From: a virus | Lineage: Duplodnaviria; Heunggongvirae; Uroviricota; Caudoviricetes | DNA: 6,049 nucleotides | Direction: 5' to 3' (one strand) | Virus record (IMG/VR): IMGVR_UViG_2681813004_000019 | Coordinates: 1 to 6,049 of that record | Part shown: in pieces, positions 1 to 6,049 of the stretch | Numbering within the stretch: the first letter of the stretch is position 1 | Layout: each line of letters begins with the position of its first letter | Made by a program: the position numbers and the translations under genes | The notes under the pieces: model-generated | Seen by the model: only the letters and a program-made list of their open reading frames with translations | Database searches by the model: none | What the model was told of the DNA's origin: nothing

Positions 1-804
1 ATGAAGCGCATGCATGACGCCTTCCCTAATCGTCCGGCATCTTCTATCACGGTTAAGCAATGGGTTGACCTGCTTACCGAAGAAGAAAAAGATAATCCAC
101 GCCGAGCAAGGCAGGTGCTAAGTCAACTAAGATCAGCAATTAGTTGGTGCATGCGGCGTCAGTTGATAGATAGTTGCGCAATTATGAGCATCCAGCCAAG
201 GGACTTCGGCTCCCGTGCTGAGGTAGGGGATCGGGTACTGTCGTATCACGAACTGGCTAAGATTTGGCTTGCTATTGAAAGAAGCCGTGCGTCTACGTCA
301 AATAAGCTCCTTCATCAGATGCTTATGCTGTGGGGGGCGAGGCTCTCAGAGCTTAGGCTGGCAACAAAGACAGAATTTGACCTGCTGGACAACGTATGGA
401 CCGTACCGAAAGAGCATAGCAAGATGGGTAATGTTATCCGCCGTCCAATCTTCGAACAAATTAAGCCTTTCCTCGATAAGGCCATGACAACGTACAATGA
501 TGTTCTTTTCCCTGGAGAAGACATAAACAAACCGATCAGCATCGCTGCAGCCAACCGATTCGTAAATAGAATAAGGGGAGGGATGGATATAGGTTACTGG
601 CGAACACATGATTTCAGAAGAACGCTTGTTACACGTCTGTCCGAGATGAATGTCGAGCCTCATGTTACTGAGCGAATGCTCGGTCATGAACTTGGCGGGA
701 TAATGTCCGTATACAATAAACACGACTGGATAGAGGCTCAGCGCAAAGCGTATGAGCTTCACGCTGATAAATTGTTCTGGCACATCAGGAGCATTTCTGA
801 TTAA
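1..804 (+). CDS. int: Tyrosine-type phage integrase, C-terminal catalytic part; the gene almost certainly starts upstream of the window
   Basis: The 267-aa frame from position 1 contains the catalytic-domain motifs HDFRRT (His-x-x-Arg), LGH and a C-terminal Tyr in SVYNKHDW, ending at a TAA at 802-804. The N-terminal DNA-binding portion expected for a ~350-400 aa integrase is missing, so the ATG at position 1 is probably internal. Confidence 0.85.
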   Translation: MKRMHDAFPNRPASSITVKQWVDLLTEEEKDNPRRARQVLSQLRSAISWCMRRQLIDSCAIMSIQPRDFGSRAEVGDRVLSYHELAKIWLAIERSRASTSNKLLHQMLMLWGARLSELRLATKTEFDLLDNVWTVPKEHSKMGNVIRRPIFEQIKPFLDKAMTTYNDVLFPGEDINKPISIAAANRFVNRIRGGMDIGYWRTHDFRRTLVTRLSEMNVEPHVTERMLGHELGGIMSVYNKHDWIEAQRKAYELHADKLFWHIRSISD

Positions 805-1840: not shown

Positions 1841-1985
1841 TTTTATGCCCTTTGCATTTGTTCAGATAGCCCTGTGTTCAGCAGGGCGGTCAGGTACTTG
1901 AACACCGTGCAAAGTCGGCCCGTATCCTTAACCTTTCGGTTGTTTTTCGGTATACGCGCTACCCGACCATATCTGAGAAATGGAC

Positions 1986-2186: not shown

Positions 2187-3101
2187 TTAGCCACAGTTTA
2201 CCTCCTGCGGCGGTTCTGGTAGCGGCATCCAGAACAAGACGTTCCCTAACCACGATAAAGTGCCGTCGCTCAACTCCACGTATTCCCCTTGTACCTGTCC
2301 TGCCATATACTCGCCGTGCTTTGAATAAATTAAAATCCAATCATCTTGAGCGGGCATTCGCTCACTACAGCTTATCCAACTATCCGGAGTTACCGGAGAG
2401 TTGCCCGACAGCTCGTTCAACTTGTAAGTTTGGCTTACAGATTCGGCTTCCAGTGGCGGTAAATCTGGCACTGTTACGCCAAACAACGCTGCCAGTGCAC
2501 GATAGTTTTGCTCACTGTGATAGCGGCCTTTACAGCGAACCAGTTTTTCCGCAGCGGATTTGATTACTTCCAGTTCTGCTACCCTCTGCTGATACGTTAA
2601 TGACTCCTGTGCCAGCCCAGCATTCCAGTCTCGCAGTTCTGCTATGTGCTTCTCTGATGCTTCAAGTAACGCCTGCTTATCGCGTAGCGCTTCTTCCAGT
2701 TCAGCAACATGGCATTCACTATCAATAAGGTTGTTATCTGCGGCTTCCTGCTCTGATTTGCGCATCAAAACAACGTGCTTTAATGCGTCCTGGGCTTTCT
2801 GAAATTTCAGTGCATAGTCAGTGGCGATTTTTTCCAGTTCTGCGATACACTTGTTTTGGGCTTCCCGTTCATCCAGCAGTGCCTGCACTACTTTAGGGTT
2901 GAAAGCTGCGATAAATTCTGCGTTGTTCTCTGCATTTTTCTGGCCGTCAAAGCCAGGCCATTTGATAATGTCTCCGCAACGTTCATCCCCCGGCGTATGC
3001 ACCGCATATGTATCAGTGCCCGGCGAAATGAATGCGACCCATTCGCCCTGTGTTGCCTGTTTTGCTAACTCACGCAGTGCCTGATAGTCAATCTTGCTCA
3101 C
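2187..3101 (-). CDS. Ea22-like phage protein with a coiled-coil middle region and a DUF551-like C-terminal domain (304 aa)
   Basis: The N-terminus [21 protein letters not shown]...[10 protein letters not shown] matches the recalled ead/Ea22-like pattern. The middle is rich in heptad-like charged residues. The C-terminus carries the W/P-rich DUF551-type signature ([11 protein letters not shown]...WMPLPEPP). It uses a GTG start preceded by AGGAGG at 7 nt, and the start overlaps the stop of the upstream 55-aa ORF (GTGA). Confidence 0.7.
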
Positions 3102-3265
3102 TGGTTGCCTCCTTTACGCCACATCGCATTCAGATATTTGTTTTGATTCACTGATGGAAAAGAATTTCTCTTAAGCAATTCCTCTCTCGATGGCATTGGC
3201 TTTACGCGTTGGCGAATAATCATTTCTGCCGGAAGAATGCCGGGATTGTATGCAAGTCCTCTCAT
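3098..3265 (-). CDS. Small phage protein of unknown function (55 aa); its first 12 codons lie inside direct-repeat copy 1 and it has no good Shine-Dalgarno
   Basis: Hand translation gives [55 protein letters not shown]. Its stop overlaps the Ea22 GTG start. The sequence upstream of the ATG is chromosomal-like insert DNA without an SD, whereas the duplicated copy of the ATG at 3954 keeps a GAGGAA SD. Confidence 0.4.
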
Positions 3266-3271
3266 GGTAAA
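3231..3271. repeat. 41-bp perfect direct repeat, copy 1
   Basis: GGAAGAATGCCGGGATTGTATGCAAGTCCTCTCATGGTAAA is identical to 3920-3960, an offset of 689 bp. The flanking bases differ on both sides. Confidence 0.95.
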
Positions 3272-3343
3272 CCCGGTAGCCGTAAGGGATAAGCCGAGGG
3301 CACCGCGCAGCGGCGATTTTGTTCGCCAGAGCCCGGGGGTGCA

Positions 3344-3369
3344 GGGGGCGGCGGCGATTGGCCGCCCCC
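3344..3369. repeat. GC-rich perfect hairpin (9-bp stem, 8-nt loop)
   Basis: GGGGGCGGC-ggcgattg-GCCGCCCCC lies inside the inserted segment. No U-tract follows it on either strand. It could be a chromosomal extragenic repeat or structural element. Confidence 0.4.
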
Positions 3370-3481
3370 TGCGCGCTCCTTGCGCCAGTGATTATATGAA
3401 GCAATGCACATGACAGGAGCGCAACAGGATGAGAGACTGAAATATTCTCGTTATTTTCGGACCTGATGACATTAATTAATT

Positions 3482-3565
3482 TTAAAATATCATCTTAAAT
3501 ACGCCAGTCACCACCAGTAGCCCAATCAGGAAAATAATCAATACAGCCCAGAGTATAATTTTCAT
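3482..3565 (-). CDS. yohP: 27-aa hydrophobic single-pass membrane peptide resembling E. coli YohP (identification from memory)
   Basis: Hand translation gives MKIILWAVLIIFLIGLLVVTGVFKMIF with a TAA stop. AAGGA lies 6 nt upstream of the ATG. The peptide is almost entirely hydrophobic, consistent with one transmembrane helix. Confidence 0.5.
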   Translation of the reverse strand: MKIILWAVLIIFLIGLLVVTGVFKMIF

Positions 3566-3818
3566 TGGCGTTCCTTTATTTGTGAGTGCTGAATAAGTAT
3601 AGGAAAAAACGAAGCCCTTTGCCGTTATCCATAAACGATTAAGATAAATCGGAAGATATCATTCACTTAGTGTATATTTTTCTGGATATGTCGTTTTATT
3701 GCTACTGATGTATTGCCACGCGAAACTAAAAAATATATCGCAACACACGGTAATCTTCGCGCACCTTTTCTTACCTGATTATTCCCCCATGAATCGTGAT
3801 TCCTTTTATCCAGCCATC

Positions 3819-3918
3819 GGGTAATGCTGCCAACTTACTGATTTAGTGTATGATGGTGTTTTTGAGGTGCTCCAGTGGCTTCTGTTTCTATCAGCTGTCC
3901 CTCCTGTTCAGCTACTGA
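3819..3918 (+). mobile_element. insA: IS1 terminal fragment: left inverted repeat plus the first 14 codons of insA, truncated
   Basis: GGTAATGCTGCCAACTTACTGAT...GAGGTGCTCCAGTGGCTTCTGTTTCTATCAGCTGTCCCTCCTGTTCAGCTACTGA matches the recalled IS1 end and the InsA N-terminus MASVSISCPSCSAT. Identity stops at 3918, one base before repeat copy 2. Confidence 0.8.
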
Positions 3919-3919
3919 A

Positions 3920-3960
3920 GGAAGAATGCCGGGATTGTATGCAAGTCCTCTCATGGTAAA
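3920..3960. repeat. 41-bp perfect direct repeat, copy 2, abutting the IS1 fragment
   Basis: Identical to 3231-3271. It contains the ATG (3954) and first 12 codons of the small ORF, here preceded by the native GAGGAA SD and the stop of the 98-aa gene. Confidence 0.95.
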
Positions 3961-3964
3961 TTCC

Positions 3965-4261
3965 TCAGTCATTACTGATAGCGCCATAGCGTGAGCGGTA
4001 ATTACGCAGGCGCGGGTCGATATATTCAGGGAATTTGTCTATTGTCGCTTTTCGCAACGGTCTCATTGCTGTTTCGTTTGTTCGGTCCTTCTCATCTTTT
4101 AACGCGAGTTGTATATCGCGTCGGTACATCCGTTCTGCTTTTGTTTCTGGTGGCAGATCAATAAACGTGTCGAAAATGTTTTTGATATTTTCCAGCACCT
4201 CCGCCTTGGAGCTACCGGAGCAATTGCGCGGGTCATCCGCACCATACAGAGGCGCTGGCAT
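3965..4261 (-). CDS. Phage protein of unknown function (98 aa)
   Basis: The ORF is in the six-frame track, lies in the operon between the SSB-like gene (stop at 4285) and the split small ORF, and is charged and hydrophilic. I do not recognise a family. Confidence 0.45.
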   Translation of the reverse strand: MPAPLYGADDPRNCSGSSKAEVLENIKNIFDTFIDLPPETKAERMYRRDIQLALKDEKDRTNETAMRPLRKATIDKFPEYIDPRLRNYRSRYGAISND

Positions 4262-4284
4262 AATGGGAGCCTTATTTTCAGTAA

Positions 4285-4872
4285 TCAGAAAGGAGGGTAA
4301 TCGTTCTGGCTGTAACCATAATCATCTGCATGATTCTGGCTTACGTTTTTAGAGCGATTGTCTTTATCTTTGAGATTGGCAACCATGTTGGCGATAGTTT
4401 CTGGTTGCTTGCCTTCTGCCTTTTCTTTAAGGGTTTGACCTGTTTGTGCAATAAACGGGATGCGTATTTCCATCTGGTAGCTGTCTGCGCCAGTCTTTTT
4501 GTTTGTGGTTAATACTTTCTGGAGCACTAACCCGATTTTCTTTCCATGAAATTCAGGTGCAACAAATTTACTGGCGGAAACCATATGCTGCGTTAATTGT
4601 CCAATCCCGGCACACCCCATCATGGCGTGAACGACATTTGCGCCAAATTTGTTTTCCGTGCCGTCATTTTTCTGAACACAGACGCTAAGATATTGGATTT
4701 TACGTCCGTCGTCGGATTCGCCAGAAAACTCAATAAATTTGGCTCCTTTTTCTGATTGCTTTAGTTCTGCTTCAGTAATGGTAATGATATGAGCACCAGT
4801 TTCGTTAATAAAACCACCTTGCCCTGCGGTCAGTGCTGCTTCTTCGTTATAAGTAAAAATCACGTTGCTCAT
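4285..4872 (-). CDS. Putative phage ssDNA-binding protein partnering the Sak4-like ATPase (195 aa); the C-terminus DYPPF resembles the SSB/gp2.5 acidic-aromatic tip
   Basis: The start ATG overlaps the Sak4 stop (ATGA), suggesting translational coupling. The C-terminal ~50 residues are low-complexity and polar, ending ...NHADDYGYSQNDYPPF, which recalls the ...DDDIPF tip of SSB. The family assignment is uncertain. Confidence 0.4.
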   Translation of the reverse strand: MSNVIFTYNEEAALTAGQGGFINETGAHIITITEAELKQSEKGAKFIEFSGESDDGRKIQYLSVCVQKNDGTENKFGANVVHAMMGCAGIGQLTQHMVSASKFVAPEFHGKKIGLVLQKVLTTNKKTGADSYQMEIRIPFIAQTGQTLKEKAEGKQPETIANMVANLKDKDNRSKNVSQNHADDYGYSQNDYPPF

Positions 4873-5549
4873 GCGGCGTTTTCCTTAATTTGATGAACAT
4901 TATTGATGCCGTAGTAATCACAAACAGTGGCATCGACGAAAGAGAGATCGTTATCAATCTCATTGGAATCAAACATTCCCATTGGGGATTTAACAGTGTC
5001 TGCACCGTTGTTTTTTGTGGTGAAAAAGAACTGGTCATCACGGGTAAGGGTGCGAAGAACTATAGTAAACATGCCTTCGACAGTGATTTTCTCGTCCAGC
5101 ATTTTGCCGATAGTCTTCATTTTCACACGCCCCATAGGAGTTTCTTCGGTGTGCGCAAGAAAATAGACTCTCAGGTCATCAGGCGCATCCTGCGCAGCCT
5201 TAATGACCTCCCATGCGTGACGGCCTATCTCAGTAAATTTATCAAACGATTTTTCTTCTGAGCGGCGCATAAACTCATTGCTCATCACATACTGGAAGTC
5301 ATCAACAATAACGATTCTTTTCCCGTATTCGTGAGCACGCTTAATTACGGCAACTATTACGTCCCATTTGTCAGTGGTAACTACGGTTCCTTTTTTTGCT
5401 CTGGCATCCCATGCAAGCCAGTCTTTTGATTTAAATGGTAGCGGCTTGCCTATTGGTTTTATAAGTATTGCTTCCTCTGGATTGATATTTCTCATGCTGG
5501 TTGATTTTCCGGTGCCAGACTCACCGAGTATTAATGTCGCAGTTCCCAT
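4869..5549 (-). CDS. Sak4-like phage recombination ATPase, RecA/Rad51-like core, AAA_24-type (226 aa)
   Basis: Walker A GESGTGKS is near the N-terminus, Walker B is RIVIVDD, and the size is about 226 aa. It occupies the position where lambda has bet/exo, downstream of cIII-kil. GAGG lies 7 nt upstream of the ATG. Confidence 0.6.
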   Translation of the reverse strand: MGTATLILGESGTGKSTSMRNINPEEAILIKPIGKPLPFKSKDWLAWDARAKKGTVVTTDKWDVIVAVIKRAHEYGKRIVIVDDFQYVMSNEFMRRSEEKSFDKFTEIGRHAWEVIKAAQDAPDDLRVYFLAHTEETPMGRVKMKTIGKMLDEKITVEGMFTIVLRTLTRDDQFFFTTKNNGADTVKSPMGMFDSNEIDNDLSFVDATVCDYYGINNVHQIKENAA

Positions 5550-5557
5550 AATTTGCC

Positions 5558-5746
5558 TCAGAATGGTAATTCGGATGGGGAGGAAAGAAACTCGCGCTCA
5601 TTCATGCGCTCTCTTTGTGCCTGCCATAAACAAAGTTGTTTCTTTGATTTATCTCCCGCTTTACGCCAGTAACGAGCCTCAGCAATGTGATATTCTCTTT
5701 TTAATCGACTTAACTCTGGAGTTTTCGCCAGTTCTACCGGAATCAT
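5558..5746 (-). CDS. Small phage protein of unknown function (62 aa, counted from the second ATG), ending ...SELPF
   Basis: GGAGG lies 5 nt upstream of the second ATG (MIPVELAKTPEL...), whereas the first ATG has no usable SD. The start overlaps the kil-like stop (ATGA). Confidence 0.45.
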   Translation of the reverse strand: MIPVELAKTPELSRLKREYHIAEARYWRKAGDKSKKQLCLWQAQRERMNEREFLSSPSELPF

Positions 5747-5856
5747 TTTGACCTCCATTTCCTGTAGGCTTCGACGGCCTCACGAAACATCTTTTCATCG
5801 CCAATAAAAGTGGCGATAGTGAATTTAGTCTGGATAGCCATAAGTGTTTTATCCAT
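5743..5856 (-). CDS. kil: Kil-like protein (lambda kil family, host cell-division inhibitor), 37 aa as encoded here
   Basis: MDKTLMAIQTKFTIATFIGDEKMFREAVEAYRKW... matches my recollection of lambda Kil (MDQTLMAIQTKF...). The start overlaps the 3' end of cIII as in lambda, with AGGAG 9 nt upstream. Confidence 0.6.
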   Translation of the reverse strand: MDKTLMAIQTKFTIATFIGDEKMFREAVEAYRKWRSK

Positions 5857-5989
5857 TTTTTGGAACTCCTGGCTGATTAAGTATGTCGATAAGGCGTTTC
5901 CATCCGTCACGTAATTTACGTGTGATTCGCTCAAGTAAAGATTCGGAAGGGCAGCCAGCAACAGGCCACCCTGCAATGGCATATTGCAT
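5849..5989 (-). CDS. cIII: CIII-like protein (lambda cIII family, FtsH inhibitor that stabilises CII), 46 aa as encoded here
   Basis: MQYAIAGWPVAGCPSESLLERITRKLRDGWKRLIDILNQPGVPKNG matches the recalled lambda CIII sequence, including the central amphipathic helix. A strong RBS AAGGAG lies 6 nt upstream of the ATG. Confidence 0.8.
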   Translation of the reverse strand: MQYAIAGWPVAGCPSESLLERITRKLRDGWKRLIDILNQPGVPKNG

Positions 5990-6049
5990 GGTGTGCTCCT
6001 TATTTATACATAACGAAAACGCCTCGAGTGAAGCGTTATTGGTATGCAT

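Follow-up and report, generated by a model that had tools for sequence, protein, structure and literature searches.

Positions 4285-5989 of the window, by which is meant the whole stretch of 6,049 nucleotides analysed here, are very probably (about 93%) part of an HK620-type homologous-recombination (Rec) module in the PL (leftward early) operon of a lambdoid prophage. The genes of the module all lie on the minus strand in the order cIII, kil, hkaM, sak4 (hkaL), ssb (hkaK) and abc2 (hkaJ), and the same order is annotated in the HK620 record. Over 4285-5989 the DNA is 97.8% identical to that of HK620, and the identities of the cIII, Kil, HkaM, Sak4 and SSB proteins to their HK620 counterparts are 97.3-99.6%. 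The cassette is already known as the published HK620 module and is not a new mosaic. It illustrates in textbook fashion how lambdoid phages exchange modules; the HK620 cassette has been sequenced, annotated and biochemically tested, and the window adds one more copy and no new kind. Re-examination of this region is mainly corrective, in that the anti-RecBCD function of the module is assigned to abc2 instead of the 62-aa ORF.

Gene content and distribution

The gene content, the identities, the position of the junction and the domain and fold assignments described below come directly from the present analysis. The features are as follows.

5944-6002, minus strand: cIII thermoregulator RNA element (Rfam RF01804, Lambda_thermo; 88.5 bits, gathering score 50)
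5849-5989, minus strand: cIII, 46 aa (Pfam Lambda_CIII, PF02061, 9.4e-31; 97.8% identical to HK620 CIII)
5743-5856, minus strand: kil, 37 aa (Pfam Lambda_Kil, PF06301, 8.4e-22; 97.3% identical to HK620 Kil)
5558-5746, minus strand: hkaM, 62 aa, its start overlapping the kil stop (ATGA; 98.4% identical to HK620 HkaM)
4869-5549, minus strand: sak4 (hkaL), 226 aa, a RecA-core-only ATPase and predicted single-strand annealing protein
4285-4872, minus strand: ssb (hkaK; 'SSB-2', DUF669), 195 aa, an OB-fold protein with the tail ...NDYPPF
3965-4261, minus strand: abc2 (hkaJ), 98 aa, a P22-type RecBCD modifier and the fourth gene of the module, outside 4285-5989

The original prediction had described cIII, kil and ORFs of 62, 226 and 195 aa, all of which are present at these coordinates on the minus strand. 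It had also placed a Sak4-type ATPase with an SSB-like partner after a lambda-like cIII-kil segment, where lambda has gam-bet-exo, a description with which the Pfam and PHROG matches and the alignment to lambda agree. The modular exchange that it proposed is real as far as the mosaic is concerned, but the module was drawn too short, abc2 beyond 4285 having been overlooked.

The combination of HK620 Sak4, SSB-2 and Abc2 is a recognised type of lambdoid Rec module (PMC12315714). Among 5426 complete E. coli genomes, 240 contain the module block, and JEP4, HK629 and several dozen Stx1a/Stx2a phages carry it with at least 98% identity; the HK620-type cassette is a common prophage module. The point where the end of an IS1 meets phage DNA had no match in the GTDB species genomes, and in no complete E. 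coli genome was more than 80% of the window found.

The junction with lambda-like DNA

The RF01804 match is full-length (1-59 of 59) and spans the translation start of cIII. The near-identity of cIII to its lambda counterpart, as first proposed, holds for the sequence, residues 1-46 being identical to lambda CIII (46/46), but not for the length, since a TCA-to-TAA change at window position 5850 shortens the protein to 46 aa, compared with 54 aa in lambda. The HK620 cIII allele is of the same truncated type. Kil is lambda-like up to Trp34 and then carries the HK620-type tail RSK.

At the DNA level, identity to lambda is 96.1% over 5755-6034, an interval that starts before cIII and runs as far as codon 34 of kil, and 93% over the kil part of this interval (5755-5856), and drops to 43%, the random level, over 5655-5754. 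The boundary between lambda-like and non-lambda DNA lies at about 5755-5779. Because the mismatches to lambda crowd into 5761-5779, the junction is placed in kil codons 26-34, the lambda-like protein breaking off after Trp34. A junction within the 3′ end of kil had been anticipated, and the change from 96.1% to 43% around 5755 locates it there. The anticipated overlap of the kil stop with the start of the 62-aa ORF is also seen directly in the sequence, with GGAGG 7 nt upstream of that start. It is an old recombination junction by which the module is joined to lambda-like cIII-kil DNA, and HK620, HK629, JEP4 and many Stx phages already have the same kil junction.

The Sak4-SSB pair

The 226-aa protein carries a Walker A motif (GESGTGKS, residues 9-16) and a Walker B motif (RIVIVDD, residues 78-84), both read directly from the sequence. 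Its match to Pfam AAA_24, a search called for at the outset, exceeds the cut-off (30.2 bits; cut-off 27), and it matches PHROG 2872, 'Sak4-like', over residues 1-220 (3.9e-108). These matches bear out the proposal of a Sak4-type ATPase with Walker A and B motifs. It is identical to HK620 HkaL/Sak4 at 225 of 226 residues (99.6%), the sole substitution being D43E. Size, Walker motifs, AAA_24 and Sak4 profiles and near-identity to a characterised member all place it in the Sak4 family. So does the adjoining ssb gene, whose start overlaps the sak4 stop at 4869-4872 (ATGA); this overlap, which had been proposed as a sign of translational coupling, is directly visible, and up to 80% of sak4 genes are reported to have an adjoining ssb (PMC5928155).

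The SSB-like partner with an SSB-like tail is likewise supported, by a match of the 195-aa protein to PHROG 743, 'single strand DNA binding protein' (5.9e-67), and by the OB fold in its structure model. It is 99.0% identical to HK620 HkaK, the differences being E153V and N166S. The protein ends in ...DDYGYSQNDYPPF; its tail is predicted to be flexible (pLDDT below 50 at residues 176-193), its last six residues, NDYPPF, are identical to those of HK620, and F195 is invariant in 30 homologues. A check against Pfam DUF669, SSB and gp2.5 had been suggested for this protein, and no match to any of the three was found in the local Pfam scan (E up to 10) or in NCBIfam, so that the SSB assignment is based on PHROG, near-identity to HK620 and fold instead of Pfam. 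The homologues of the protein are named DUF669 at NCBI. Sequence searches with Sak4 and with SSB against PDB chains gave no meaningful match to a solved structure.

The biochemistry and recombineering activity of HK620 Sak4 and SSB have been characterised (Hutinet et al., 2018; PMC5928155). HK620 Sak4 anneals DNA in an ATP-dependent manner, and SSB stimulates this annealing in dependence on its last six residues, which recruit Sak4. On their own, sak4 and ssb give the same 210-fold recombineering as all four genes of the module together (Hutinet et al., 2018; PMC5928155). Given their near-identity to the HK620 proteins, the proteins of the window probably have the same activities: as in the experiments with the HK620 protein, Sak4, an ATPase reduced to the RecA/Rad51 core, would bind single-stranded DNA and anneal complementary strands in an ATP-dependent manner.

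Abc2

The gene for Abc2 begins 23 nt downstream of the 195-aa SSB gene. Its product matches Pfam Anti-RecBCD_p2 (PF11043) over its full length (residues 1-98 to positions 1-97 of 97; 3.3e-35) and PHROG 656 (6e-44), and is 61% identical to P22 Abc2 (E 4e-42), which places it in the Abc2 family. It is also 61% identical to HK620 Abc2 and 94% identical to that of JEP4. By homology, abc2 probably supplies the RecBCD-directed function of the module. The protein would bind RecC and, according to the cited papers, would convert RecBCD, otherwise a destructive nuclease, into a resection enzyme feeding the annealase; since this allele stands at that distance from those of HK620 and P22 (61% identity in each case), its activity is predicted less directly than those of its neighbours. 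Directly downstream of abc2 lies a 689-bp insertion of host DNA, which leaves the module genes untouched and has no counterpart in HK620, in JEP4 or in the E. coli prophage closest to the window. A misassembly may lie behind the insertion, whose position is given as 3272-3919.

HkaM and its possible roles

Many Stx and P22-like phages carry hkaM, an orphan gene. The protein matches PHROG 1723 (1.6e-33) and has no usable match in Pfam (E up to 10) or NCBIfam. Its AF2 model consists of a helical hairpin (helices 10-30 and 33-49) and a disordered tail ending in ELPF, with pLDDT below 55 after residue 50; a Foldseek search of the PDB with this model returned 41 matches, generic helical hairpins at E>2. 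Compared with ES18 gp50, to which the protein is 66% identical, synonymous sites are saturated (pS 0.97) and pN is 0.19. Judged by these substitution rates, HkaM is a real, conserved protein, and its family is confined to lambdoid Rec modules. HkaM was also considered as a counterpart of P22 Arf, the Erf cofactor, and this was rejected: hhalign gave a probability of 0.3% and a forced alignment 26% identity, and by charge count Arf is acidic and HkaM net basic, the two having only position in common.

The original prediction saw in the 62-aa protein a functional analogue of lambda Gam, an inhibitor of RecBCD. HkaM does stand first after kil, where lambda has gam, and its conservation fits a functional protein, but the proposal is undercut because the module carries abc2, a P22-type RecBCD modifier, and homologues of HkaM mostly co-occur with Abc2, as in ES18, ST64T and metagenomic loci. 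At 62 aa, HkaM is less than half as long as Gam (138 aa), to which BLASTP gives E=28, and no Gam chain is found among the Foldseek matches. A Gam-like role is therefore very unlikely. It is still harder to credit that the ORF does not function as a protein and serves as a leader or spacer which couples translation of kil to that of sak4 or houses a terminator. A putative terminator, tL2D, is annotated inside hkaM in the HK620 record, and the ORF, besides overlapping the kil stop, ends 8 nt before sak4. Such a role would nevertheless leave unexplained the low pN at saturated synonymous sites, the retention of length, predicted helices and C-terminal motif down to about 35% identity, and the retention of its position where an HNH gene has been inserted between the HkaM homologue and erf (L009 and L013).

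A speculative reading, rather unlikely on present evidence, is that HkaM mimics the SSB tail as an adaptor or competitor, docking into SSB-C-tail pockets through its ...[DE]-[LI]-P-F-COOH tip. It would act on the annealase of the phage or on a host enzyme that interacts with SSB, such as ExoI, RecJ, RecQ or PriA, and would so tune the processing of single-stranded DNA intermediates. Every intact family member found ends in Pro-Phe, including those at E of about 1e-3 and about 35% identity, and the tail residues before it vary in sequence and length, but this conservation says less than it seems to, because the family has few members (18 cluster representatives), which are fairly close relatives. 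The tip is like the ends of the ES18 SSB tail (...DDEIPF) and of the phage SSB-2 tail (...DYPPF), the latter being the element by which SSB recruits Sak4 in HK620, and hkaM and its homologues are always directly upstream of an annealase, whether the 226-aa Sak4, Erf or an AAA_24 protein of about 290 aa. The mimicry is nonetheless something we infer, the terminal Pro-Phe could have another purpose, and HkaM is dispensable for oligo recombineering in HK620, where sak4 plus ssb equal the full module (PMC5928155). The one small new point is that the invariant Pro-Phe end of the family, on a tail predicted to be disordered, appears to resemble the C-terminal tip of SSB, and this tip offers a cheap, testable lead. 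If the mimicry were true, HkaM would be a generic regulator, not recognised before, of phage Rec modules with Sak4, Erf and other annealases.

Comparison with known recombination modules

The closest known system is the HK620 module itself, hkaM-hkaL(sak4)-hkaK(ssb)-hkaJ(abc2), at 4161-5942 of NC_002730 (Hutinet et al., 2018), whose gene names that paper attributes to Clark et al. (2001). Genes, order, overlaps, truncated cIII and kil tail are all the same as in the window, and HkaM, Sak4 and SSB are 98.4, 99.6 and 99.0% identical. HK620 differs in the central part of its abc2 allele and in lacking the host-DNA insertion that follows abc2 in the window.

The Red system of lambda (gam-bet-exo) follows cIII-kil directly, at the same place of the PL operon, and does the same overall job with an annealase and a means of handling RecBCD, although homology with the window ends at kil codon 34. 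Its annealase, Beta, is Rad52-like, whereas that of the window is of the ATP-dependent RecA-core type; the window module has no exonuclease but a dedicated SSB, and would modify RecBCD through Abc2 where Gam blocks it.

The arf-erf-abc1-abc2 module of P22 and its variants in ES18 and ST64T likewise have four genes in this layout behind c3-kil, with an abc2 homologous to that of the window, and in ES18 and ST64T the place of arf is taken by a homologue of HkaM (66-68% identical). In all three the annealase is the Rad52-like Erf, in contrast to Sak4 in the window, and in P22 Arf is unrelated to HkaM and Abc1 to SSB.

Gene order and spread of the recombination cassette

The cassette joined to cIII and kil is the published recombination (Rec) module of the coliphage HK620, common in E. 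coli prophages and already known. Except for abc2 and the thermoregulator, the features below were taken from the ORF listing and direct reading.

Features of the cassette, with protein identity to HK620
5944–6002, minus strand: cIII thermoregulator element (Rfam, complete, 88.5 bits)
5849–5989, minus strand: cIII, 46 aa; 97.8%
5743–5856, minus strand: kil, 37 aa; 97.3%
5558–5746, minus strand: hkaM, 62-aa ORF; 98.4%
4869–5549, minus strand: sak4 (hkaL), 226-aa ORF; 99.6%, D43E the only difference
4285–4872, minus strand: ssb (hkaK), 195-aa ORF; 99.0%, with E153V and N166S, last six residues identical
3965–4261, minus strand: abc2 (hkaJ), 98-aa ORF, 23 nt downstream of ssb; Pfam Anti-RecBCD_p2

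The HK620 record has the same order (cIII, kil, hkaM, hkaL, hkaK, hkaJ) and annotates hkaL as 'Sak4-like ssDNA annealing protein', hkaK as 'single strand DNA binding protein' and hkaJ as 'abc2 anti-RecBCD'; DNA identity with the window is 97.8% over 4285–5989. PHROG profiles assign the three proteins accordingly (Sak4-like, 3.9e-108; SSB, 5.9e-67; abc2, 6.4e-44). The 226-aa protein passes Pfam AAA_24 (30.2 against a gathering score of 27), and its Pfam hits are to generic AAA families only, led by AAA_24, rather than to a kinase or an ABC fragment. It carries Walker A (GESGTGKS) and Walker B (RIVIVDD), and the 195-aa protein ends in ...DDYGYSQNDYPPF. The kil stop codon overlaps the start of the 62-aa ORF in an ATGA, and the 226-aa and 195-aa ORFs overlap in the same way. 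The first of these overlaps, with a GGAGG located 7 nt before the ATG, favors the 62-aa start over a 66-aa alternative at 5758. Thus, the ORFs, overlaps, motifs and protein tail of the original prediction are all real, and its Sak4-type ATPase and SSB-like partner hold.

By megablast against phage records, 4285–6049 matched 284 entries, 64 of which span at least 80% of it at ~98% identity, including JEP4 and dozens of Stx1a/Stx2a converting phages. HK629 Sak4 is 99.6% identical to that of the window. Of 5426 complete E. coli genomes, 240 contain the hkaM-sak4-ssb block.

The HK620 module has a fourth gene, abc2, which had been missed. Its product matches Anti-RecBCD_p2 along the full length (3.3e-35) and is 61% identical to P22 Abc2. 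The allele is mosaic, both ends being identical to HK620 abc2 and the central part being another allele; amino acid identity is 61% to HK620 and 94% to JEP4.

Junction with lambda

Pfam assigns cIII to Lambda_CIII (9.4e-31) and kil to Lambda_Kil (8.4e-22). On an alignment of the window with lambda 30500–34500 and HK620, identity to lambda is 96.1% across 5755–6034 and 43%, a random level, across 5655–5754. Six of the 11 mismatches in the former interval fall in 5761–5779; this crowding and the drop in identity place the junction in kil codons 26–34, with homology reaching Trp34. Kil ends in RSK* in the window and ILILKLRSSKSIH* in lambda. Through a single C-to-A change at 5850, cIII codon 47 becomes TAA and Kil Q3 becomes K, so that cIII is identical to lambda at 46 of 46 residues and then truncated, a feature also noted in the HK620 record. 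The predicted mosaic of nearly lambda-identical cIII-kil and a Sak4/SSB pair, joined inside the 3′ end of kil, is therefore right.

Surroundings and the 689-bp insertion

The window is the int-proximal end of a lambdoid prophage.

Features outside the cassette
1–804, plus strand: tyrosine integrase, C-terminal 267 codons
785–976, minus strand: AlpA-type (AlpA/HTH_17-like) excisionase ORF
1217–1840: AntA/P22_AR_C antirepressor
1880–1968, minus strand: sRNA-Xcc1 (Rfam RF02221, full-length, 69.3 bits; gathering score 53)
2187–3101, minus strand: Ead/Ea22-DUF551 protein, single 304-aa ORF
3098–3265: 55-aa ORF, counterpart of the DUF2737 gene in related prophages

The integrase and excisionase genes are convergent, their 3′ ends overlapping by 20 nt, whereas int and xis are co-directional in lambda and HK620. 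Ead/Ea22 (residues 2–142) and the C-terminal DUF551 (241–299) are fused in the window but encoded by separate genes in HK620 (hkaG, hkaE) and the closest E. coli prophage. The sRNA-Xcc1 match sits in an ORF-poor stretch between the antirepressor and Ead/Ea22 genes.

Between abc2 and the 55-aa ORF lies a 689-bp insertion (insert 3272–3919), flanked by a direct repeat (3226–3271 and 3915–3960; 41 bp exact, 46 bp at 96%) that is the 5′ end of the 55-aa ORF. It consists of an E. coli chromosomal dusC-yohP-mdtQ' intergenic segment (3271–3819), including the gene for the small membrane protein YohP, and the first 102 bp of IS1 (3820–3921). Neither HK620 nor JEP4 has the insertion, nor does the closest E. 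coli prophage, and its junction had no match in GTDB species genomes; it may reflect either a true rearrangement or a misassembly.

HkaM and its Pro-Phe tip

HkaM is a real protein: in the comparison with ES18 gp50 (66% amino acid identity), pS is 0.97, with synonymous sites saturated, and pN 0.19. The proposal that it is a Gam analogue is supported by position only; BLASTP against Gam gave E=28, and the module already has abc2. P22 Arf was likewise rejected as a relative (hhalign probability 0.3%). The predicted model is a helical hairpin (helices 10–30 and 33–49) with a low-confidence tail, for which no informative structural neighbor was found.

HkaM homologues occur in 107 phage records and near-identical Sak4 in ~66, so that ~40 HkaM-bearing records presumably have a different annealase. 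Among the examined loci, a homologue lies directly upstream of Erf in ES18, ST64T and three metagenomic loci (L009, L012, L013); in two others (L010, L014) the gene directly downstream of it encodes a ~290-aa AAA_24 protein, accompanied by a bacterial-type SSB. In view of these different annealases, and of the Abc2 present in most of these modules too, HkaM is neither Sak4-specific nor an anti-RecBCD replacement. An HNH endonuclease gene stands between the homologue and erf in L009 (4192–4662) and L013 (3036–3506), the latter having a second HNH gene after erf. The database protein P0009 (87 aa, 36-kb contig) joins HkaM residues 1–47 to a segment for which an Abc2 (PF11043) match had been precomputed, which suggests a natural sak4-ssb deletion fusing hkaM to abc2.

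An exhaustive profile search of 1.8 billion proteins yielded only 18 cluster representatives of the family. Every intact member found, down to ~35% identity, ends in Pro-Phe (ELPF, DLPF, EMPF, EPPF, DMPF, ETPF, PAPF, PCPF, NCPF), while the residues upstream differ in sequence and length. This ending is a small new observation. Bacterial SSB tails have the same tip (ES18 SSB ends in ...DDEIPF), and so does the phage SSB-2 tail, ...DYPPF, the element recruiting Sak4 in HK620. HkaM might conceivably dock into SSB-tail binding pockets of the annealase or of host SSB-client enzymes, although we think this improbable. HkaM is a minor testable lead in an otherwise known cassette.

Comparison with the HK620 system

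HK620 Sak4 was shown to bind ssDNA and to carry out ATP-dependent annealing of complementary strands, but to be weak when alone; HkaK proved to be a genuine SSB, stimulating both annealing and recombineering, and Sak4 requires the last six HkaK residues in order to bind ssDNA coated with this SSB (Hutinet et al., 2018, PMC5928155). In the same study, sak4 and ssb alone gave the same 210-fold recombineering as all four genes of the module, abc2 had no added effect in the oligonucleotide assay, HkaM was an orphan without assigned function, and Abc2 was described as redirecting RecBCD into a 5′-3′ resection enzyme (PMC5928155). Given their near-identity, the window proteins would be expected to share these activities. 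A Rad51/RecA-type annealase with 'SSB-2' and Abc2, without a nuclease, is a recognized type of lambdoid Rec module in a 2025 survey (PMC12315714).
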